64,000 bases of DNA. Source: an uncultured Verrucomicrobiae bacterium (lineage in GTDB: Bacteria; Verrucomicrobiota; Verrucomicrobiia; Chthoniobacterales; UBA10450). Below, piece after piece: positions 33,001 through 42,000 of this stretch (position 1 is its first letter; every line of letters begins with the position of its first letter). The DNA lies in the NCBI GenBank assembly GCA_963815455.1, contig CAWFGO010000001.1, forward strand, positions 928,001 through 992,000, in the 5' to 3' direction. The position numbers were made by a program.

Positions 33001-36000
33001 AAGCCGAACGATCGGCGGCAACGTCCGCACCGGCGGCAACGCCCATGCCGCGCCTGCCAGGAATAACTACGCATACCGTAGCGCGCGGAGAGACGCTGAC
33101 CTCTATCGCCAAAGTTTATGGCGTTTCAGTGAGCGAACTGCAGCACTTCAATCGCATCGAGGACCCGCTGAAGTTGCGTGCAGGTCAGACGCTCATGATT
33201 CCCCCGCCGGCGACGCCCGTTTCGTCATCGTCAGGCGAGTGATCGATGGAACAGCCGTCGAACCAGCACTGGTTTTTACGCAAACACGGCGACGGCAGCA
33301 TTTTTGGCCCGCTGTCGTTCGAGCAACTCGCCCTCTGGGCATCGACTGCGCAAATCGCGCCGCATGATTCGCTCTCCACCGATCAGCAATCGTGGATCAA
33401 GGCACCCATGTTATCCCATCTCGGGATGGATTGGCTGGTTGAGATTACCAGCGAACATTACTACGGACCGACCACCCTCGGGGCCATCCAGGAATTCATC
33501 CGGCTCGGCGAGATCAACGAAGACACCTTCGTCATCAACACGTGCGATGGAACTCGCCGCCAGATCCAGGAAATGCCTTCGTTACTCGAAATGGCCCGAG
33601 CCGAGGCGGACGCCGACACGATCGAAAATGAATCGTTGCCCGCCAATGAGCCTGCCGCCACCGGCATTTCGATTCGGCTCCAGGAACGTATCCGCGATCT
33701 CGAACAGGCCCTGCGCGAAGAACGCCGCTCACTCATGGAAGCGGAGCAACGGTACCAGGAGCTTGAACAAAAATACCTCGAACTGGCCCAGCAGGTTTCC
33801 GAGCCGGCCGGGTAAATATTCTGCCAGGGAGGGGACTCGAACCCCTAAGGATTGCTCCACCAGATCCTAAGTCTGGCGCGTCTGCCAATTTCGCCACCCT
33901 GGCGCGAGTGTAAGGAATGTTTATCGGAAGCGACCAATCTGCAAAGGCCCTGCTTATGAAAATCAATAATTCTCGCTTCGATAGTTTGGTCGCTCGATAT
34001 TATCCCGCGGTTTATGGAATGGCCGTCAGGCTGACCGAAGATCCGCGTGAAGCCGTTGCGCTTACTGCCCAGCGTGCGCGGCCCGAAAATCATCGCCGAT
34101 ACCAATGGCCGGTATCGCGACGAACCGGCGCGCTCGAAGGCTCGGCCAAAACCCAGTGTGACGAACACATCGGAACATTTCTGGCCAGCCTCATGCCCGG
34201 CGATCGCAGCCCGAGCCCGGCTTCCGTTGGGCGCGCGCCCGCTCCGGAGGAAGCTGCTTGCCTCGTTGAAGCCGCCTGATGAATTAGATGTACCTCGACG
34301 CCTCCGACAACTGCAATGGCATCGACAAGCAGATCGAGGCTCGCCCGCCCGCGCAGCAATCGCAAGATCGACAACGTTCTTCGTCGCGCCTACCGAAGAT
34401 TCGACAGAAGCAAGGAAACTGAAAGACTATTGCGACGATATCTCATCGCGTAGCGGCGAACGGCACGACCGGCGCCGGGCTCGACAACCGACGAAACGCA
34501 GCTATTCCAGGCCGGTCGAGCCATCTAGGTTCCAGCTTGGTTTGCCGGAGGCAACCGCGCGTGCCGCCATTTCCGCCGGAACCCTGTCATTCAGCGCGCG
34601 ATAGCGAACCCCACCTTCGTAAGCGTAAAGCGGAACGTATTTGTTACGCCTTTCCTTTTGGAGCCTGACCGCATGCCGGCTGAATGTCGGATCGAGAACA
34701 TACCTTCCGTTTGTGGTCTCCCATTCCAACCAGGCATGGGTAAACCAATCACCGGCCCGGCGCCTGCCGATGATCAAACGAAAATCCGTGGCACCGATCT
34801 GACGCATGATTTGGTAAAGAGTCACCGCCTTGCCCTTGCAATCCGCCCTCTTCGTCAGACCAACCTCAGCCGGCGTCTTCCATTCTTTTGAATATCGATA
34901 GGGAATCCGGCGCAGCCGGCTCATCCATTGATTGACAACCGCCAGAGAAACTTCGTCGGCCGGCTCAGCTTCAACCGCGGCCAGGATCGGTTGCACACGC
35001 AGCATCTGACGATCGTAAGGTGTGGAGTCGACCACAAACAATATCGGGCGGGCCAATGCGGTAGATGCCAGGCCGACAACCGCCAGGAGTGATAAATGAA
35101 AGCACTTGAATCGTCGGGATGAGAGCGATTTCCGGACCATGACGCTCTCATAAAGCAGTGCCCATGCCGCGCGGATTGGCTGGTCAGGTAGATAAAAAAG
35201 CAGACGGCATTTTGCAGCATCGACAACGGACAGGCTCGAAAACCATTGCGCGATCCCCAGTTGGGCTGGCACTGTATTCTACGTCAACCAAGAGGTAAGG
35301 ATGACCGCAGAAAGGGTGACTTTTTATTCTCCCACGCTGGTGCCGGCATTGCACCGCATCCAGCGACAGTTCGGCTATCTAAAGCCGGAGGCCCTCGAGG
35401 AGTTTTCCAAAGAAACGGGCGTGCCGCAGTACCGGCTTCAAGCAGTAGCCAGTTTCTTCCCTCATTTTCTGCTCACTCCTCCTAAGAAAGTTGTGTTGCG
35501 GGTCTGTCGCGATTCGTCCTGCCATTTGGCCGGCTCGGGGAGGATGCTGCGAGAACTGGATGCCTTGACGAGCGAACACGTTGCGATTGAGGGAGTGTCG
35601 TGTCTGGGCCGATGCGATCGAGCGCCGGCAGCGTGCGTCGCGATGCAGGGCCGCGAGCACGATAACTATTATCTCGGCCGATCAGTTGATGAATTAAGGA
35701 CGGTCGTTGCCGCGACTCTCGCTGGTGCGCCGCCAGCGCCAGATCGAGATACGGATCACATCTCGGTGAACGACGACGCCGTGATCGACCCCTACAAAGG
35801 AGAGTCACCCGATTATCGCGCGGTGCGCGCGGCGATAGCGGCGCGCGATGCCTCGCTGAACGGAGCCATCGAAATTCTAAAATCGAAGGCGGGATGGACT
35901 CCGGGAATGCTCGACAACTTCCGGGCCGCGGCCATTCGCCAAATGCGCGTTGATTTCGAATTGGCTCCCCCTGTTCGCGAAGCCGTGCGTCATTGGCAGA

Positions 36001-39000: not shown

Positions 39001-42000
39001 TCTTGGCGAGATCGGGTTACTCGCCTTAACTCCAGCCGATGAACGAAAAACGGCCGATGAAGTCGATCGCGCGGTGAAAGCAGCGCTCGATCAGGCGGGC
39101 GACGACCTGACCCGGGTTTTTCCGCCAGGCCACCGTTCCGCAACCTGTTCTGCCTTGAATCATCTGGAATTGACTCAGCTTAGCCGCGCAGATTTTCTCG
39201 AGATGTTGCGCAAGTTCGGCGTGCTGCGCCGACGAATCGTCGAACAATCTCTCGCCCGGTTACACAGCTCAACCGTGGGTCATCGCCTCCTCGATGAGTA
39301 CGTCGCCCAGGGTCTTTACGAGGGTCAAAGCGTTCTCGTTCTCGACCTGGATAATTGCACCCGGTGCGACGCCTGCACCCAGGGCTGTGTCGAGCAACAC
39401 GGGACCGCCACCCACGGTATCCCAATCCCGCGCCTTCTCCGGGACGGACGGCGCCTGGATAACTTTCTGGTCGCGACCTCCTGTCGATCCTGCACCGATC
39501 CGCATTGCATGGTCGGATGTCCGGTCGACTCGATTCATCGAGGCAAGCACCTGCAAATCGTCATCGAAGATCATTGCATCGGCTGTGGCTTGTGCGCCGA
39601 AAACTGTCCCTACGGCAGCATCTTCATGATTCCTAACGAGCGACATCGCTTCGCCGTGGCCGATGTGGGACACGCCGGACAAACGCACCTGGTCGGTCAA
39701 CTCAAGGCCGCTAATTGCGATCTCTGCGATGCCAGAGGCGACCTATCCTCGCCCGACCCAGCATGCGTAGCCGCATGTCCACACGATGCCGCCTTCCGTA
39801 TGACCGGCCCCCAACTGCTCGAGCGCGTCATGAAATCGCACGTCCACGAAACGGACTGGTGATTTTCTGGGCGCCGCTAGGGTTGCCCCTGGAGGGACAT
39901 GCTTCCGCATGTCCGGGACGCGCCGAAGCGCGTCCCTCCGCCTGAACAGAACCTCGACGTCGGAAGAGGTTAACTTGCGGAAGGTGGCCCGGCTGGCGGC
40001 GATATACCCGGCGCCGATGTTGAGCCTGATGTTGTAGCCGCCTCGCTCTGTCGAGGCGAAGGTGCAGCACTTGGCGTTGTGGCCGCCTTTGCCGCGGCCG
40101 CTTCCGCGGCGGCTTTCTTCTTTGCTTCCGCCGCAGCCGCGGCTTGAGCAAGGTTTGCATCGACATCGGCAGCTTCGATCGGATGAATCTTGTGATAATA
40201 ACCGTTCGATTTCGCGAGATCGTTCTTGCGCATCAGCAACGCATCGAAGCGCTCCCGCGTACTCAATTCGAAATCCTTATCCATCTTGATCGCTTCGAAC
40301 GGGCAAACCTCGACGCAAATCTGGCAGCTCATGCACACCGATATGTCGATGTCGAACACCGCCGGATAAAACTGCGGTTTGCCCAGGTAATCGGGCTTTT
40401 TGTCTTCGCTCTTAATAATATAGATGCACTGCGGCGGGCATTCCTTCTCGCAAATCTTGCACGCCACACAGCGCAAACCCGCCTCCGGGTCGTCGGTGTC
40501 GTAAATCAGAAACGGAAAGTTCCGGTAATTTTCCGGCAACGGGTTCCGCTCTTCCGGATATTGCACCGTGATCAGCCGATCCTTTTCGAAATAACTCCCG
40601 GCGAAGTTACGCAACGTAACCGCCATGCCCTTGAGTATGCCTGTGCCGATCATGCGATTCTCATCGATCCACCTCTCCCATGACGATGTCGATGCTGCCG
40701 AGAATGACCATCACATCGGCCACAGTATGGCCAAGGCACAAATCTTCGAGGACGGTCAGATTGATAAAACTTGGCGGACGGACCCGGTAACGATAAGGGT
40801 TCGCGCTGCCGTCGCTGATTAAATAAAAGCCGAGCTCGCCCTTTGGTGCTTCGATCCGCCCATACGCTTCGCCCACCGGCGGTTTGAACGCGCGAATCTT
40901 CACCTTTGGATTCGCGATTGGCCCCGGTTGAATCTGGGAGAACGCCTGCTTTAAAATTTCGATGCTTTCGCGCATCTCCAGCGCGCGCATCATTAAGCGA
41001 TCGTAGGTGTCGCCATGATCTCCCAGCGGGACCCGAAACTTGAATCGGGGATAAATTCCGTAGCCATCGACTTTGCGTACATCGTAATTTACCCCGCAGG
41101 CGCGAAGCATCGGGCCGGTGATGCCAGCGTTGATGGCGAGCTCGGCCGACATTTTTCCCACGTTCTGGGTCCGCGCGATCACGATCTCGTTTTGCAAAAT
41201 CAGTTGTTCGAACTCATCGAGAAACTTCGGGAAAGCATCGACAATCTTCTTCGCGCGGCCAAGCCAGGCATCGTCGGCATCGACTCGGCAGCCGCCGAAC
41301 CGCATGTAATCGCACATCATCCGCGAGCCGGCGAGCGATTCGAACAGATCGAGAATTTTTTCGCGTTCTCGAAAGGCATACATCAGCGGCGTGCCCCACG
41401 CCCCCATGTCGCTCAGCAAGAATCCGAGCAGCGAGGCGTGATTCTGCAGCCGGGTCAGCTCAGCCAGAATGACGCGCAAATATTCGGCGCGTTCGGGAAC
41501 TTCGATCCCGGCCAGTTTCTCTACGCTGAGCGCATAGGCCCAGTTGTTCGTCATCGAACAAAAATAATCGAGCCGGTCGGTGTACGGCATCGAGCCGAGA
41601 TAACTCGTGTTCTCGCCGATCTTTTCGTGATTCCGATGCAGGTAGCCGAAAACCGGCTTGAGCTTGCGCACAATCTCGCCTTCGAGCGCGACGTTCATCC
41701 GAAACACGCCGTGAGTCGATGGATGTTGCGGTCCCATCGACACTTCGAGCAACTCGCCGTCGAGTGAAGACGTCATCCCGAGCGCAGTCGAGGGATCCCG
41801 TTGCGTAACCTTAAAGCTATCGCCGCGGGATCCGTCGACTACGCTTCGCTCTGCTCGGGATGACATCATTGGGCCGTAATATTTTCAGCGCCGTCCAGTT
41901 GCGGTCGCTGTGCGTAATGCCCTTTGGCTCGCTCCAATACTTCATCGTGCGGGGTCGGCTCGTATTCGTAATCGTCCGGATCGCGATAATCTTTCCGCAT

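Follow-up and report, generated by a model that had tools for sequence, protein, structure and literature searches.

Two adjacent genes, one for a fused NuoE-NuoF flavoprotein (ORF1) and one for an iron-sulfur protein with cyclic-nucleotide-binding domains (ORF2), probably encode the input module, on the cytoplasmic side, of a trans-envelope redox chain resembling Ptd, with outward electron flow and a cyclic-nucleotide switch. Judged by its sequence, ORF2 is that system's E subunit in its long form. The point of reference is ptdABCDEFG, described in the accessible part of its source as a putative porin-cytochrome operon of uncharacterised function, comprising a pentaheme protein that has a beta-sandwich (PtdA), the porin PtdB, an FAD/NAD(P) oxidoreductase (PtdC), a periplasmic tetraheme (PtdD), a cNMP-binding protein with 4Fe-4S clusters (PtdE), a ferric-reductase-like membrane protein (PtdF), and a decaheme (PtdG) (bioRxiv 10.1101/2023.11.21.568154). 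The pair would name an electron source for Ptd-class multiheme systems and turn the question into a soluble two-protein assay, for a system found widely in Verrucomicrobiota, Planctomycetota, and Acidobacteriota, all three of which abound in soils and fresh waters. A literature search, with most subscription journals outside its scope, returned no description of the pair or of the LVIVD/HbpS/barrel set discussed below; the supplements of the ptd preprint (Tables S7 and S8, gene neighbourhoods) might list such variants, and the accessible part of a Tenderiales preprint was unrelated to the pair.

The gene pair and its setting

The window is the whole 64-kb stretch of DNA analysed; coordinates of the pair are given within it, and C1 coordinates denote partner genes elsewhere in the same genome (G000). 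The survey's finding of NuoEF paired with an Fe-S/cNMP chimera is borne out by the domain content of both ORFs.

35301..37337, + strand: ORF1, fused NuoE-NuoF, a HoxF/FdsGB-like flavoprotein of non-bifurcating type, 678 aa, no TM segment
35334..35642, + strand: ORF1, NuoE-like [2Fe-2S] domain; C69, C74, C101, and C105 invariant in 47/47
36063..36602, + strand: ORF1, FMN/NAD(P)H-binding domain; DESEPGTFKDR retained
37050..37313, + strand: ORF1, N3-type [4Fe-4S] site; C596, C599, C602, C647
37352..39862, + strand: ORF2, predicted long E subunit, 836 aa, with neither signal peptide nor TM segment
37670..37780, + strand: ORF2, [2Fe-2S] ligands C107, C118, C121, and C143, invariant in 50/50; the His-ligated [4Fe-4S] (N5/A4) motif that normally comes next is absent
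38096..38257, + strand: ORF2, two [4Fe-4S] sites of ferredoxin type, C249-C302; 8 Cys invariant in 50/50
38384..38716, + strand: ORF2, cNMP-binding domain A; phosphate-binding G419 E420 ... R429 in 29/29 long forms
38774..39226, + strand: ORF2, cNMP-binding domain B with an insert of about 35 residues; G552 E553 ... R595 in 28/29 long forms
39329..39811, + strand: ORF2, four-cluster Fe-S domain of HycB/DmsB/PtdE type; 16 Cys invariant in 50/50, common to short E and PtdE

The ATG of ORF2 at 37352 lies 14 nt past the ORF1 stop, agrees with the starts of homologues, and is preferred to the TTG at 37238 first listed, which would overlap ORF1. A promoter and terminator scan of the pair gave chance-level results, and the GC level is flat across both genes and so gives no sign of recent import.

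The flavoprotein and its nucleotide pocket

Pfam divides ORF1 into 2Fe-2S_thioredx (residues 12-114), Complex1_51K (255-434), SLBB, and NADH_4Fe-4S (584-671) domains. By alignment, Q391 (codon 36471-36473) occupies the position of Aquifex NuoF E185, and M408 and K411 those of K202 and Y205; the window's ORF1 clade as a whole carries Gln at the E185 position (E185Q) and has lost the Y205 aromatic. With the NADH pocket remodelled in this way, NADPH would be at least as likely a substrate as NADH, a preference that is our guess and is based on E. coli NuoF E183. The survey had called the input NADH-oxidising: the NuoE-NuoF fusion stands, but NADH is unsafe for this clade. The natural E185Q clade of NuoF-type flavoproteins would itself be a ready test of the choice between NADH and NADPH in this fold.

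The iron-sulfur and cyclic-nucleotide domains of ORF2

Besides a [2Fe-2S] and two [4Fe-4S] clusters, ORF2 has a pair of cNMP domains and an Fe-S domain with four clusters (Pfam Fer2_4, Fer4, and two cNMP_binding stretches). Its N-terminal module had been labelled NuoG-type, a label that we withdraw in favour of HydA/HoxU/FdsA-type. Among NCBIfam models it scores best with FeFe A6 (1e-33) and HoxU (3e-32), ahead of NuoG (2e-12), and its best PDB matches are HydAB and FdsAB structures (7t2r_A, 6tg9_A, 7q4v_A); it has two ferredoxin clusters, and the His-ligated N5 motif HxxxCxxCx5C, present in this genome's own NuoG, is absent in 56/56 and 43/43 long forms. The missing N5 cluster, together with the likeness to HydA, FdsA, and HoxU, argues that the N-terminus is not NuoG. 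At the other end, the PtdE-type 4Fe-4S domain of the earlier description is indeed shared with PtdE, but its 16 invariant Cys correct it to four clusters. Between the two Fe-S blocks, the cNMP fold and the phosphate cassette G-E...R are both present and the model matches HCN and PKA domains, domain B aligning with the HCN2 CNBD at Z 18.4 and an rmsd of 1.9 over 138 residues; fold searches with the pair returned single-domain matches only.

Partner proteins and their relation to Ptd

In this genome the partners are found at four distant places, in keeping with the survey's remark that they are not clustered here.

C1:1247482-1248522: F, di-heme-b-like membrane protein
C1:1245978-1247468: G, membrane-anchored decaheme, 10 CxxCH and one N-terminal TM segment
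C1:1500203-1501363: c554-type cytochrome, 3 CxxCH here and 3-5 in the family
C1:553114-564539: LVIVD multiheme, barrel, and HbpS-like protein

The homology reported between these proteins and the genome's own ptd copy was recovered, with small-database E-values of 1e-8 (F/ptdF), 5e-12 (decaheme/ptdG), and 2e-10 (c554/ptdD); ORF2 matches PtdE with 29% identity over 361 aa (E 1e-33, likewise a small-database value), and E falls in a clade separate from PtdE. F has four invariant His (97, 111, 324, 338) in or beside hydrophobic segments across 35 alignment rows, including 3 PtdF. The barrel model has about 18 long strands and matches AlgE best (E 2e-16), at an overall pLDDT of 60 that is low in residues 1-229; in the ESM Atlas, F matched unnamed clusters and the barrel gave a lead to alginate-export barrels. 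The LVIVD multiheme gene of this genome is broken by two frameshifts, which are either assembly errors or decay.

Counterparts of the remaining Ptd parts were sought in 66 loci. BLASTP at E 1e-6 found a PtdA homologue in 0/66, the comparison leaving aside unassigned 5-heme c554-like genes of some planctomycete loci. PtdB had no BLAST match, and hhalign against a 4-sequence profile gave a probability of 0.2. No PtdC homologue was found either: the sole similar neighbour, a CysJ-like FAD/NAD gene that occurs in 6/66 loci and adjoins the LVIVD cluster here, was rejected as its equivalent, being present in 143/151 order genomes.

Co-inheritance across the order and beyond

A profile search for each partner across 151 genomes of the order found F, the decaheme, the c554, the LVIVD multiheme, and the AlgE-like barrel each in the identical 22 genomes, one further weak match to F being canonical ptdF; the porin-cytochrome trait of an outer-membrane barrel co-inherited with multihemes is thus present. 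The CysJ-like and second NuoD genes near by, used as controls, occurred in 143/151 and 26/151. The 22 genomes are kin (13 genera in 4 families), so that the perfect co-occurrence overstates independence. Long E is confined to 8 of the 151, the same count as in the survey, and window-type NuoEF to those same 8; the other 14 system genomes have a short E and no NuoEF, and none has both forms. Short E lies directly upstream of F in 14/14 (13 from fetched loci, G147 from coordinates), whereas F adjoins the pair in only 2/8 long-form order genomes. The proposal of a second Ptd-type system that includes the pair and has its other genes scattered is therefore much stronger now, resting on the identical 22-genome set and on linkage. 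Since the system also exists with short E, NuoEF is an add-on and not its defining part, and the 14 genomes with no visible flavin input indicate that the system can do without NAD(P)H. Two apparent variants of short E were set aside: the three cNMP stretches that Pfam draws resolve in pairwise alignment into two domains, the first split by an insert, and the 869-aa E of G006 most likely has a false upstream start, since Pfam matches nothing in the ~310 residues added at its N-terminus and the usual short-E start falls near residue 311.

The 48 of the 66 loci that are at least 9 kb long hold NuoEF in 48, F-like genes in 27, the decaheme in 27, c554 in 26, the LVIVD multiheme in 20, an HbpS-like gene in 17, the barrel in 11, and a CHASE2/HAMP-type cyclase in 11; the earlier counts of 48, 27, 26, 24, and 16, with 8 cyclases, are reproduced, with somewhat broader profiles on our side. 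Cyclase genes in general lie near only 13/48 and 11/53 loci. Distant loci of at least 9 kb whose E carries the Fe-S module have NuoEF in 52/53 (F in 43, decaheme in 41, c554 in 38), as against 0/8 for those lacking the module, 7 of which have F. Loci L167-L187 run NuoEF, E, F, decaheme on one strand (L170 being a short form), and in Acidobacteria these four genes make up one operon. A single sequence, P0202 (1483 aa), joins NuoE, NuoF, Fe-S, cNMP, and four-cluster parts in one chain. In three acidobacterial genomes an orphan NuoEF and long-E pair occurs in addition to the operonic one, so copies of the pair can outnumber F; the E next to F in G169-G171, considered as a case of long and short E coexisting, is a long form with its own NuoEF. 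Among the best 150 clusters at 50% identity, 64 have the long architecture. Two loci come from strain-named records, Tautonia sociabilis GM2012 (L131) and Gemmata sp. IIL30 (L076).

Exchange of the E subunit

The genome studied here retains the remnant of a deleted short E: 4 nt before F ends a stub of 31 codons, within a 197-bp stretch that shares 80% identity with short E of the same-genus genome G001 over its upstream region and initial ~22 codons, the other ~1.6 kb being missing. In quick tree searches run without bootstrap, long and short E form two clades (96, 99), whereas the F tree mixes long- and short-form genomes (6-7 changes, AU p 1.2e-5) and places this genome's F sister to that of G001 at 99. 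The E form has thus been swapped on a common backbone.

Proposed electron path and competing readings

From established knowledge of the families we infer the cofactors, the role of F as a transmembrane di-heme wire, and the order of carriers. Electrons would enter from NAD(P)H through FMN to N3 in ORF1, pass to the [2Fe-2S], the two [4Fe-4S] clusters, and the four-cluster domain of ORF2, and continue through F to decaheme G, the c554-type cytochrome, and the LVIVD multiheme with its 18-strand barrel and HbpS-like protein. The two cNMP domains, set between the Fe-S blocks, most likely switch the flow on binding cAMP or cGMP, and the flow most likely runs outward, carrying reductant (for this clade, probably NADPH) to an acceptor in the periplasm or at the surface, with no energy conserved; direction, NADPH preference, gating, and acceptor are all guesses on our part. 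No characterised electron-transfer chain is known to us in which a cyclic nucleotide acts as an allosteric gate. Only tentatively do we suggest the fuller version, in which flow from NADPH across the inner membrane to the envelope multihemes is gated directly by cAMP/cGMP and the flavin head is a plug-in of NADH or NADPH type, swappable for a headless subunit.

Electrons might instead be supplied by periplasmic or surface multihemes, or by quinol via F, with the module reducing NAD(P)+, a direction that we think improbable. In hydrogenases and formate dehydrogenases, to which the best PDB matches belong, diaphorase modules of this kind work in both directions, a NADP-type pocket would suit NADPH production, and in NarGHI a cytoplasmic four-cluster protein beside a di-heme b subunit carries electrons inward; for the likely donors, however, such flow would be uphill against redox and membrane potential, and proton-pumping or bifurcating parts are absent, as are the extra clusters and A/M/F residues. 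There is likewise a small chance that the proteins are mainly a sensor in which hemes of the envelope signal the state of redox, heme, or NO via F to E, the cNMP domains serving as signalling output or nucleotide buffer and NuoEF merely resetting the clusters. In favour, the more common form (14/22) is short E, which lacks a catalytic domain, related E proteins bear FHA domains, and cyclases, a kinase, and the HbpS-like protein recur near by; but E itself has no output domain of DNA-binding, kinase, or cyclase type, a sensor with a barrel and over 20 hemes would be costly, and the cyclases adjoin only about a quarter of loci.

It is very unlikely that the pair works free in solution as a diaphorase or ferredoxin reductase under cNMP regulation, with a purely historical link to the multihemes: although it stands isolated in this genome, occurs as orphan copies in 3/3 acidobacterial genomes checked, and is tandemly duplicated in L125, F is present in all 8 order genomes and 10/10 further genomes with the pair, and short E is lost where long E is present. 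Largely refuted, and left with the slightest of probabilities, is a role as NuoEFG, the head for NADH input, in the complex I-like cluster of 11 subunits that begins 107 bp downstream (39970-51748). The pair and the nuoI-D-C-B-A and nuoH-N genes, which are without nuoEFG, do lie tail to tail, but this adjacency occurs in 1/66 loci; the NuoD type is found in only 2/8 genomes with the pair yet in 15/15 family genomes regardless; N5, which in complex I passes electrons to NuoI, is absent from every long form counted above; and a canonical nuoD-EF-G-H-N operon already exists at C1:125809-139741.

Comparison with known systems

The verrucomicrobial porin-multiheme clusters of He et al. 2017, compared by description only, come from the same phylum and have the same proposed role of passing electrons to the outside; they combine a porin of at least 20 strands with an octaheme, and the accessible part of the account mentions no cNMP or flavin part (PMC5615132). 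Another cluster of this genome (C1:1575387-1580985) may be of that type. The bifurcating Bfu family, to which the B, C, and A subunits are homologous, is defined in the accessible parts of its sources by extra B2-B5 clusters, A/M/F residues, and a GGPSG motif (PMC9304861, PMC7311640). ORF1 has T306, K308, and Y386 at the diagnostic sites, an SLBB motif SGPSG one residue off, and neither the B2-B5 clusters nor a C-terminal ferredoxin domain; with those clusters absent and T/K and Y at the sites, it is non-bifurcating by these published criteria.

With the N-termini of HoxFU, FdsGBA, and HydABC the pair shares the NuoE+NuoF fusion and the HydA/FdsA/HoxU-like Fe-S module, but it has no H-cluster, NiFe, or Mo catalytic domain, has lost the His-ligated cluster, has an altered nucleotide pocket, and has a cNMP-cNMP-four-cluster block as its output. 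The FMN, N1a, N3, and N1b ligands of the complex I N-module (NuoEFG) are kept, whereas the N5 motif and the NuoG C-terminal part are missing, two ferredoxin clusters stand in place of N4 alone, and the pair does not co-occur with the membrane arm. The closest likeness is to Ptd itself, which coexists with the long-E type in this genome: E, F, G, and D are homologous, the E-F-G order is kept, and an outer-membrane barrel is present in both. The long-E type differs in its outer part, made up of the LVIVD multiheme, the AlgE-like barrel, and the HbpS-like protein, and in its input, where long E gains an N-terminal [2Fe-2S]+2[4Fe-4S] module and takes NuoEF as its partner where Ptd has the FAD/NAD reductase PtdC.

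Gene pair and its surroundings

In the window, which is C1:928001-992000 of the genome, the flagged interval is filled by two ORFs reading in the same direction, with close homologues in Chthoniobacterales records. A repeat domain search confirmed the domain calls of the survey's finding, and its counts of neighbouring genes in the 66 loci of the first homologue search, like its 8 carriers among 151 order genomes, were reproduced. A complex I-like cluster of 11 subunits that lacks nuoEFG starts 107 bp 3' of the pair on the opposite strand. The features of the window are:

35301-37337, + strand: ORF1, 678 aa, NuoE-NuoF fusion (NuoEF) by domain search
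37352 (most likely ATG start) onward, + strand: ORF2, 836 aa, long E subunit
39970-51748, both strands: second, headless complex I-like cluster, with a nuoI-D-C-B-A arm (-) divergent from a nuoH..K-L-M-N arm (+)
53012-54487: additional antiporter-like subunit, downstream of the cluster

A small DUF2204-like ORF sits between the two arms of this cluster, and two adjoining proteasome-type ORFs (PF00227) and a transglutaminase-like ORF (30826-32432 and 34502-35272, - strand) lie just 5' of the pair.

The flavoprotein and its nucleotide pocket

ORF1 retains all N1a ligands, all N3 ligands and the DESEP motif, and by the bifurcation criteria of PMC7311640 and PMC9304861 it classes as non-bifurcating. 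The position of Aquifex NuoF E185 is Gln in all 47 near homologues and Glu in the genome's canonical NuoEF. Among 98 parsed ORFs, a number of which come from loci that overlap, each of the 75 Gln forms is also without the aromatic residue at Y205, and 22 of the 23 Glu forms, which are acidobacterial operonic copies and some planctomycetes, keep KPPFP; these changes demonstrate a remodelled pocket. Glu at this position contacts the adenosine ribose, and E. coli complex I reportedly accepts NADPH once this residue is replaced. From the remodelled pocket and this role of the Glu we infer that ORF1 may prefer NADPH.

The long E subunit

ORF2 joins an Fe-S module, two cNMP domains and a four-cluster Fe-S domain. 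The survey had called its N-terminus NuoG-type; the better matches are to [FeFe]-hydrogenase A6 (1e-33) and HoxU (3e-32) rather than NuoG (2e-12), and among solved structures the module is best matched by the alpha subunits of hydrogenases and formate dehydrogenases, while the C-terminal part matches HycB3/B4. Invariant in 50 full-length homologues are the four [2Fe-2S] ligands, the eight that would hold two ferredoxin-type clusters, and 16 C-terminal Cys, enough for four clusters. The G-E...R motif of the cNMP domains is kept in 29 of 29 long forms in one domain and 28 of 29 in the other. A structure model of ORF2 (pLDDT 76, pTM 0.70) matched the cyclic-nucleotide domains of PKA and HCN in a fold search, which returned no match along the full length; a search for TM segments found none in ORF1 or ORF2. 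Elsewhere the genome has four more ORFs with cNMP domains, and it has six that resemble class III cyclases.

Partners across the order

The 151 order genomes, all at least 80% complete, were searched separately with ORF1, ORF2 and each of five partner genes. ORF2 matched 27 genomes (E <=1e-20): 8 at full length, 14 in a short form of 560-710 aa, 3 with a match as strong as canonical PtdE gives (two confirmed from sequence, G007 placed by match level) and 2 with the N-terminal module alone. The short E is ORF2 minus that module (33% over ORF2 residues 348-830), and its gene lies directly 5' of that for F, the di-heme-b-like membrane protein, followed by the decaheme (G). Window-type NuoEF is confined to the 8 genomes with full-length ORF2, and F, the decaheme, the LVIVD multiheme, the barrel and the c554-type cytochrome each occur in one identical set of 22 genomes, made up of these 8 and the 14 with short E. 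These carriers are kin, from 13 genera in 4 families, and the overlap is therefore stated without a p-value; the control profiles (the complex I-like NuoD and a CysJ-like neighbour) are distributed differently.

Exchange of short and long E

G001, of the same genus as our genome (G000), carries short E, F and decaheme in that order, with flanking genes that match those around F in G000. There, 197 bp remain that are 80% identical to the start of the G001 short-E gene (its first codons and the region 5' of them), the remainder of which is deleted:

C1:1248553-1248633: coding part of the short-E remnant, a stub separated from F by 4 nt

A swap of E forms is caught in this genome, in which either the long E was gained or both forms were inherited and the short one lost. 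Long and short forms fall into separate clades of the E tree (48 rows, hand-picked from retrieved loci), while on the F tree (35 rows) the two labels have to change 7 and 6 times, or no fewer than 4 and 3 times by starred branches; a clade made up of short forms alone is rejected (p-AU 1.2e-5).

The wider family

The C-terminal 502 residues of ORF2 matched 424 clusters at 50% identity (E <=1e-30), and 64 of the best 150 carry the N-terminal module. FHA domains occur in some other E-type clusters (32 of the best 150 scanned), with fusions in P0180, P0185, P0194 and P0209, a hint that Ser/Thr kinases may control the system in other lineages; in three planctomycete loci the pair is followed by a kinase gene. 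One protein, P0202, runs from NuoE to the four-cluster domain in one chain and has the Gln motif.

The best 80 of 615 matches of a profile search gave at least 70 loci, mostly from Planctomycetota and Acidobacteriota, at least 2 of them duplicating contigs of the first homologue set; 69 were new, and 8 under 9 kb were excluded. Of the 53 new loci that have the module, 52 contain NuoEF, 43 F, 41 the decaheme, 38 c554, 14 LVIVD, 14 the barrel, 12 an HbpS-like gene and 11 a cyclase; of the 8 that lack it, one of them a fragment at a contig end, none contains NuoEF and 7 contain F. All 10 further genomes picked from the first set's loci likewise have F. Three of these genomes, all Acidobacteriota, have two long pairs each, one adjoining F (Glu motif in two, frameshift in the third) and the other an orphan of the window's clade. 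At L125:4158-19260, a Pirellulaceae record, two NuoEF and long-E pairs, both with the Gln motif, flank one F-decaheme-c554 set; at L024, L025, L026, L040 and L045, CHASE2 cyclase, FecR-TPR and Ig-repeat genes recur 3' of the pair.

Envelope components

In F, four invariant His form two pairs, each with a spacing of 14 residues, and four segments lie above the hydrophobicity cut-off, with a fifth likely around H97-H111; ferric reductases and other transmembrane proteins with two b hemes show this pattern. G has one TM segment followed by ten heme motifs, and the c554-type and HbpS-like proteins begin with hydrophobic leaders. The barrel is modelled with about 18 strands, AlgE being closest, and profile comparison with PtdB, whose profile is shallow, detected no link. 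In relatives the LVIVD multiheme is about 1300 aa long and carries 10 hemes; in G000 it is frameshifted at C1:562460-563272 and canonical ptdE at C1:454249, and mnmE/trmE is cut into two ORFs (window 61382-62789, - strand), which together suggest indel errors in the assembly.

Proposed function

The pair probably feeds an outward electron chain. The FMN of ORF1 would most likely oxidise NAD(P)H, electrons would pass through the Fe-S clusters of ORF1 and then ORF2 to F, and they would cross the membrane on its two b hemes to multihemes in the periplasm and further out; the two cNMP domains in tandem, sited between both Fe-S blocks, could couple or uncouple these. Since outward flow would be downhill, spending membrane potential rather than building it, a supply of reductant for metal, humic, N-oxide or heme chemistry would fit it better than respiration.

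That the same chain runs inward is unlikely, as is a role of the system as a sensor, and a pair acting as a free diaphorase would be distinctly improbable. Least credible is a head for the adjacent complex I-like cluster, which we reject: the His-ligated N5 motif, present in the genome's own NuoG, is absent from long E in all 56 near and all 43 distant homologues, and a canonical nuoEFG operon lies at C1:125809-139741. Moreover, the pair adjoins such a cluster in 1 of 66 loci, and the cluster's NuoD type, found in 26 of the 151 genomes and all 15 other family genomes, is shared by no more than 2 of the 8 genomes that carry the pair.

Relation to known systems

Other redox genes of G000 include:

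C1:446470-457570: canonical ptd cluster with all its genes, the C-B-A arm divergent from the D-E-F-G arm, frameshift near the ptdE end
C1:1567777-1580985: multiheme genes with 9, 6 and 7 CxxCH and a 787-aa ORF between

The latter may be a porin-multiheme cluster of the kind described by He et al. 2017 (PMC5615132). The ptd cluster also occurs in three other genomes (G006, G021, G085), so soil-type Chthoniobacterales carry it, some with both systems. A five-heme cytochrome, a 1100-aa Fe-S subunit and membrane subunits at C2:384357-395506 together resemble an alternative complex III.

A literature search that included the ptd preprint (bioRxiv 10.1101/2023.11.21.568154) without its supplements yielded no description of the pair's system. 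Genomes flagged as unpublished support none of the claims made here. The pair's system works like Ptd and has D, E, F and G in common with it, but the tests for PtdA and PtdC came out negative, and it should be filed as a sister of Ptd rather than as a ptd operon.
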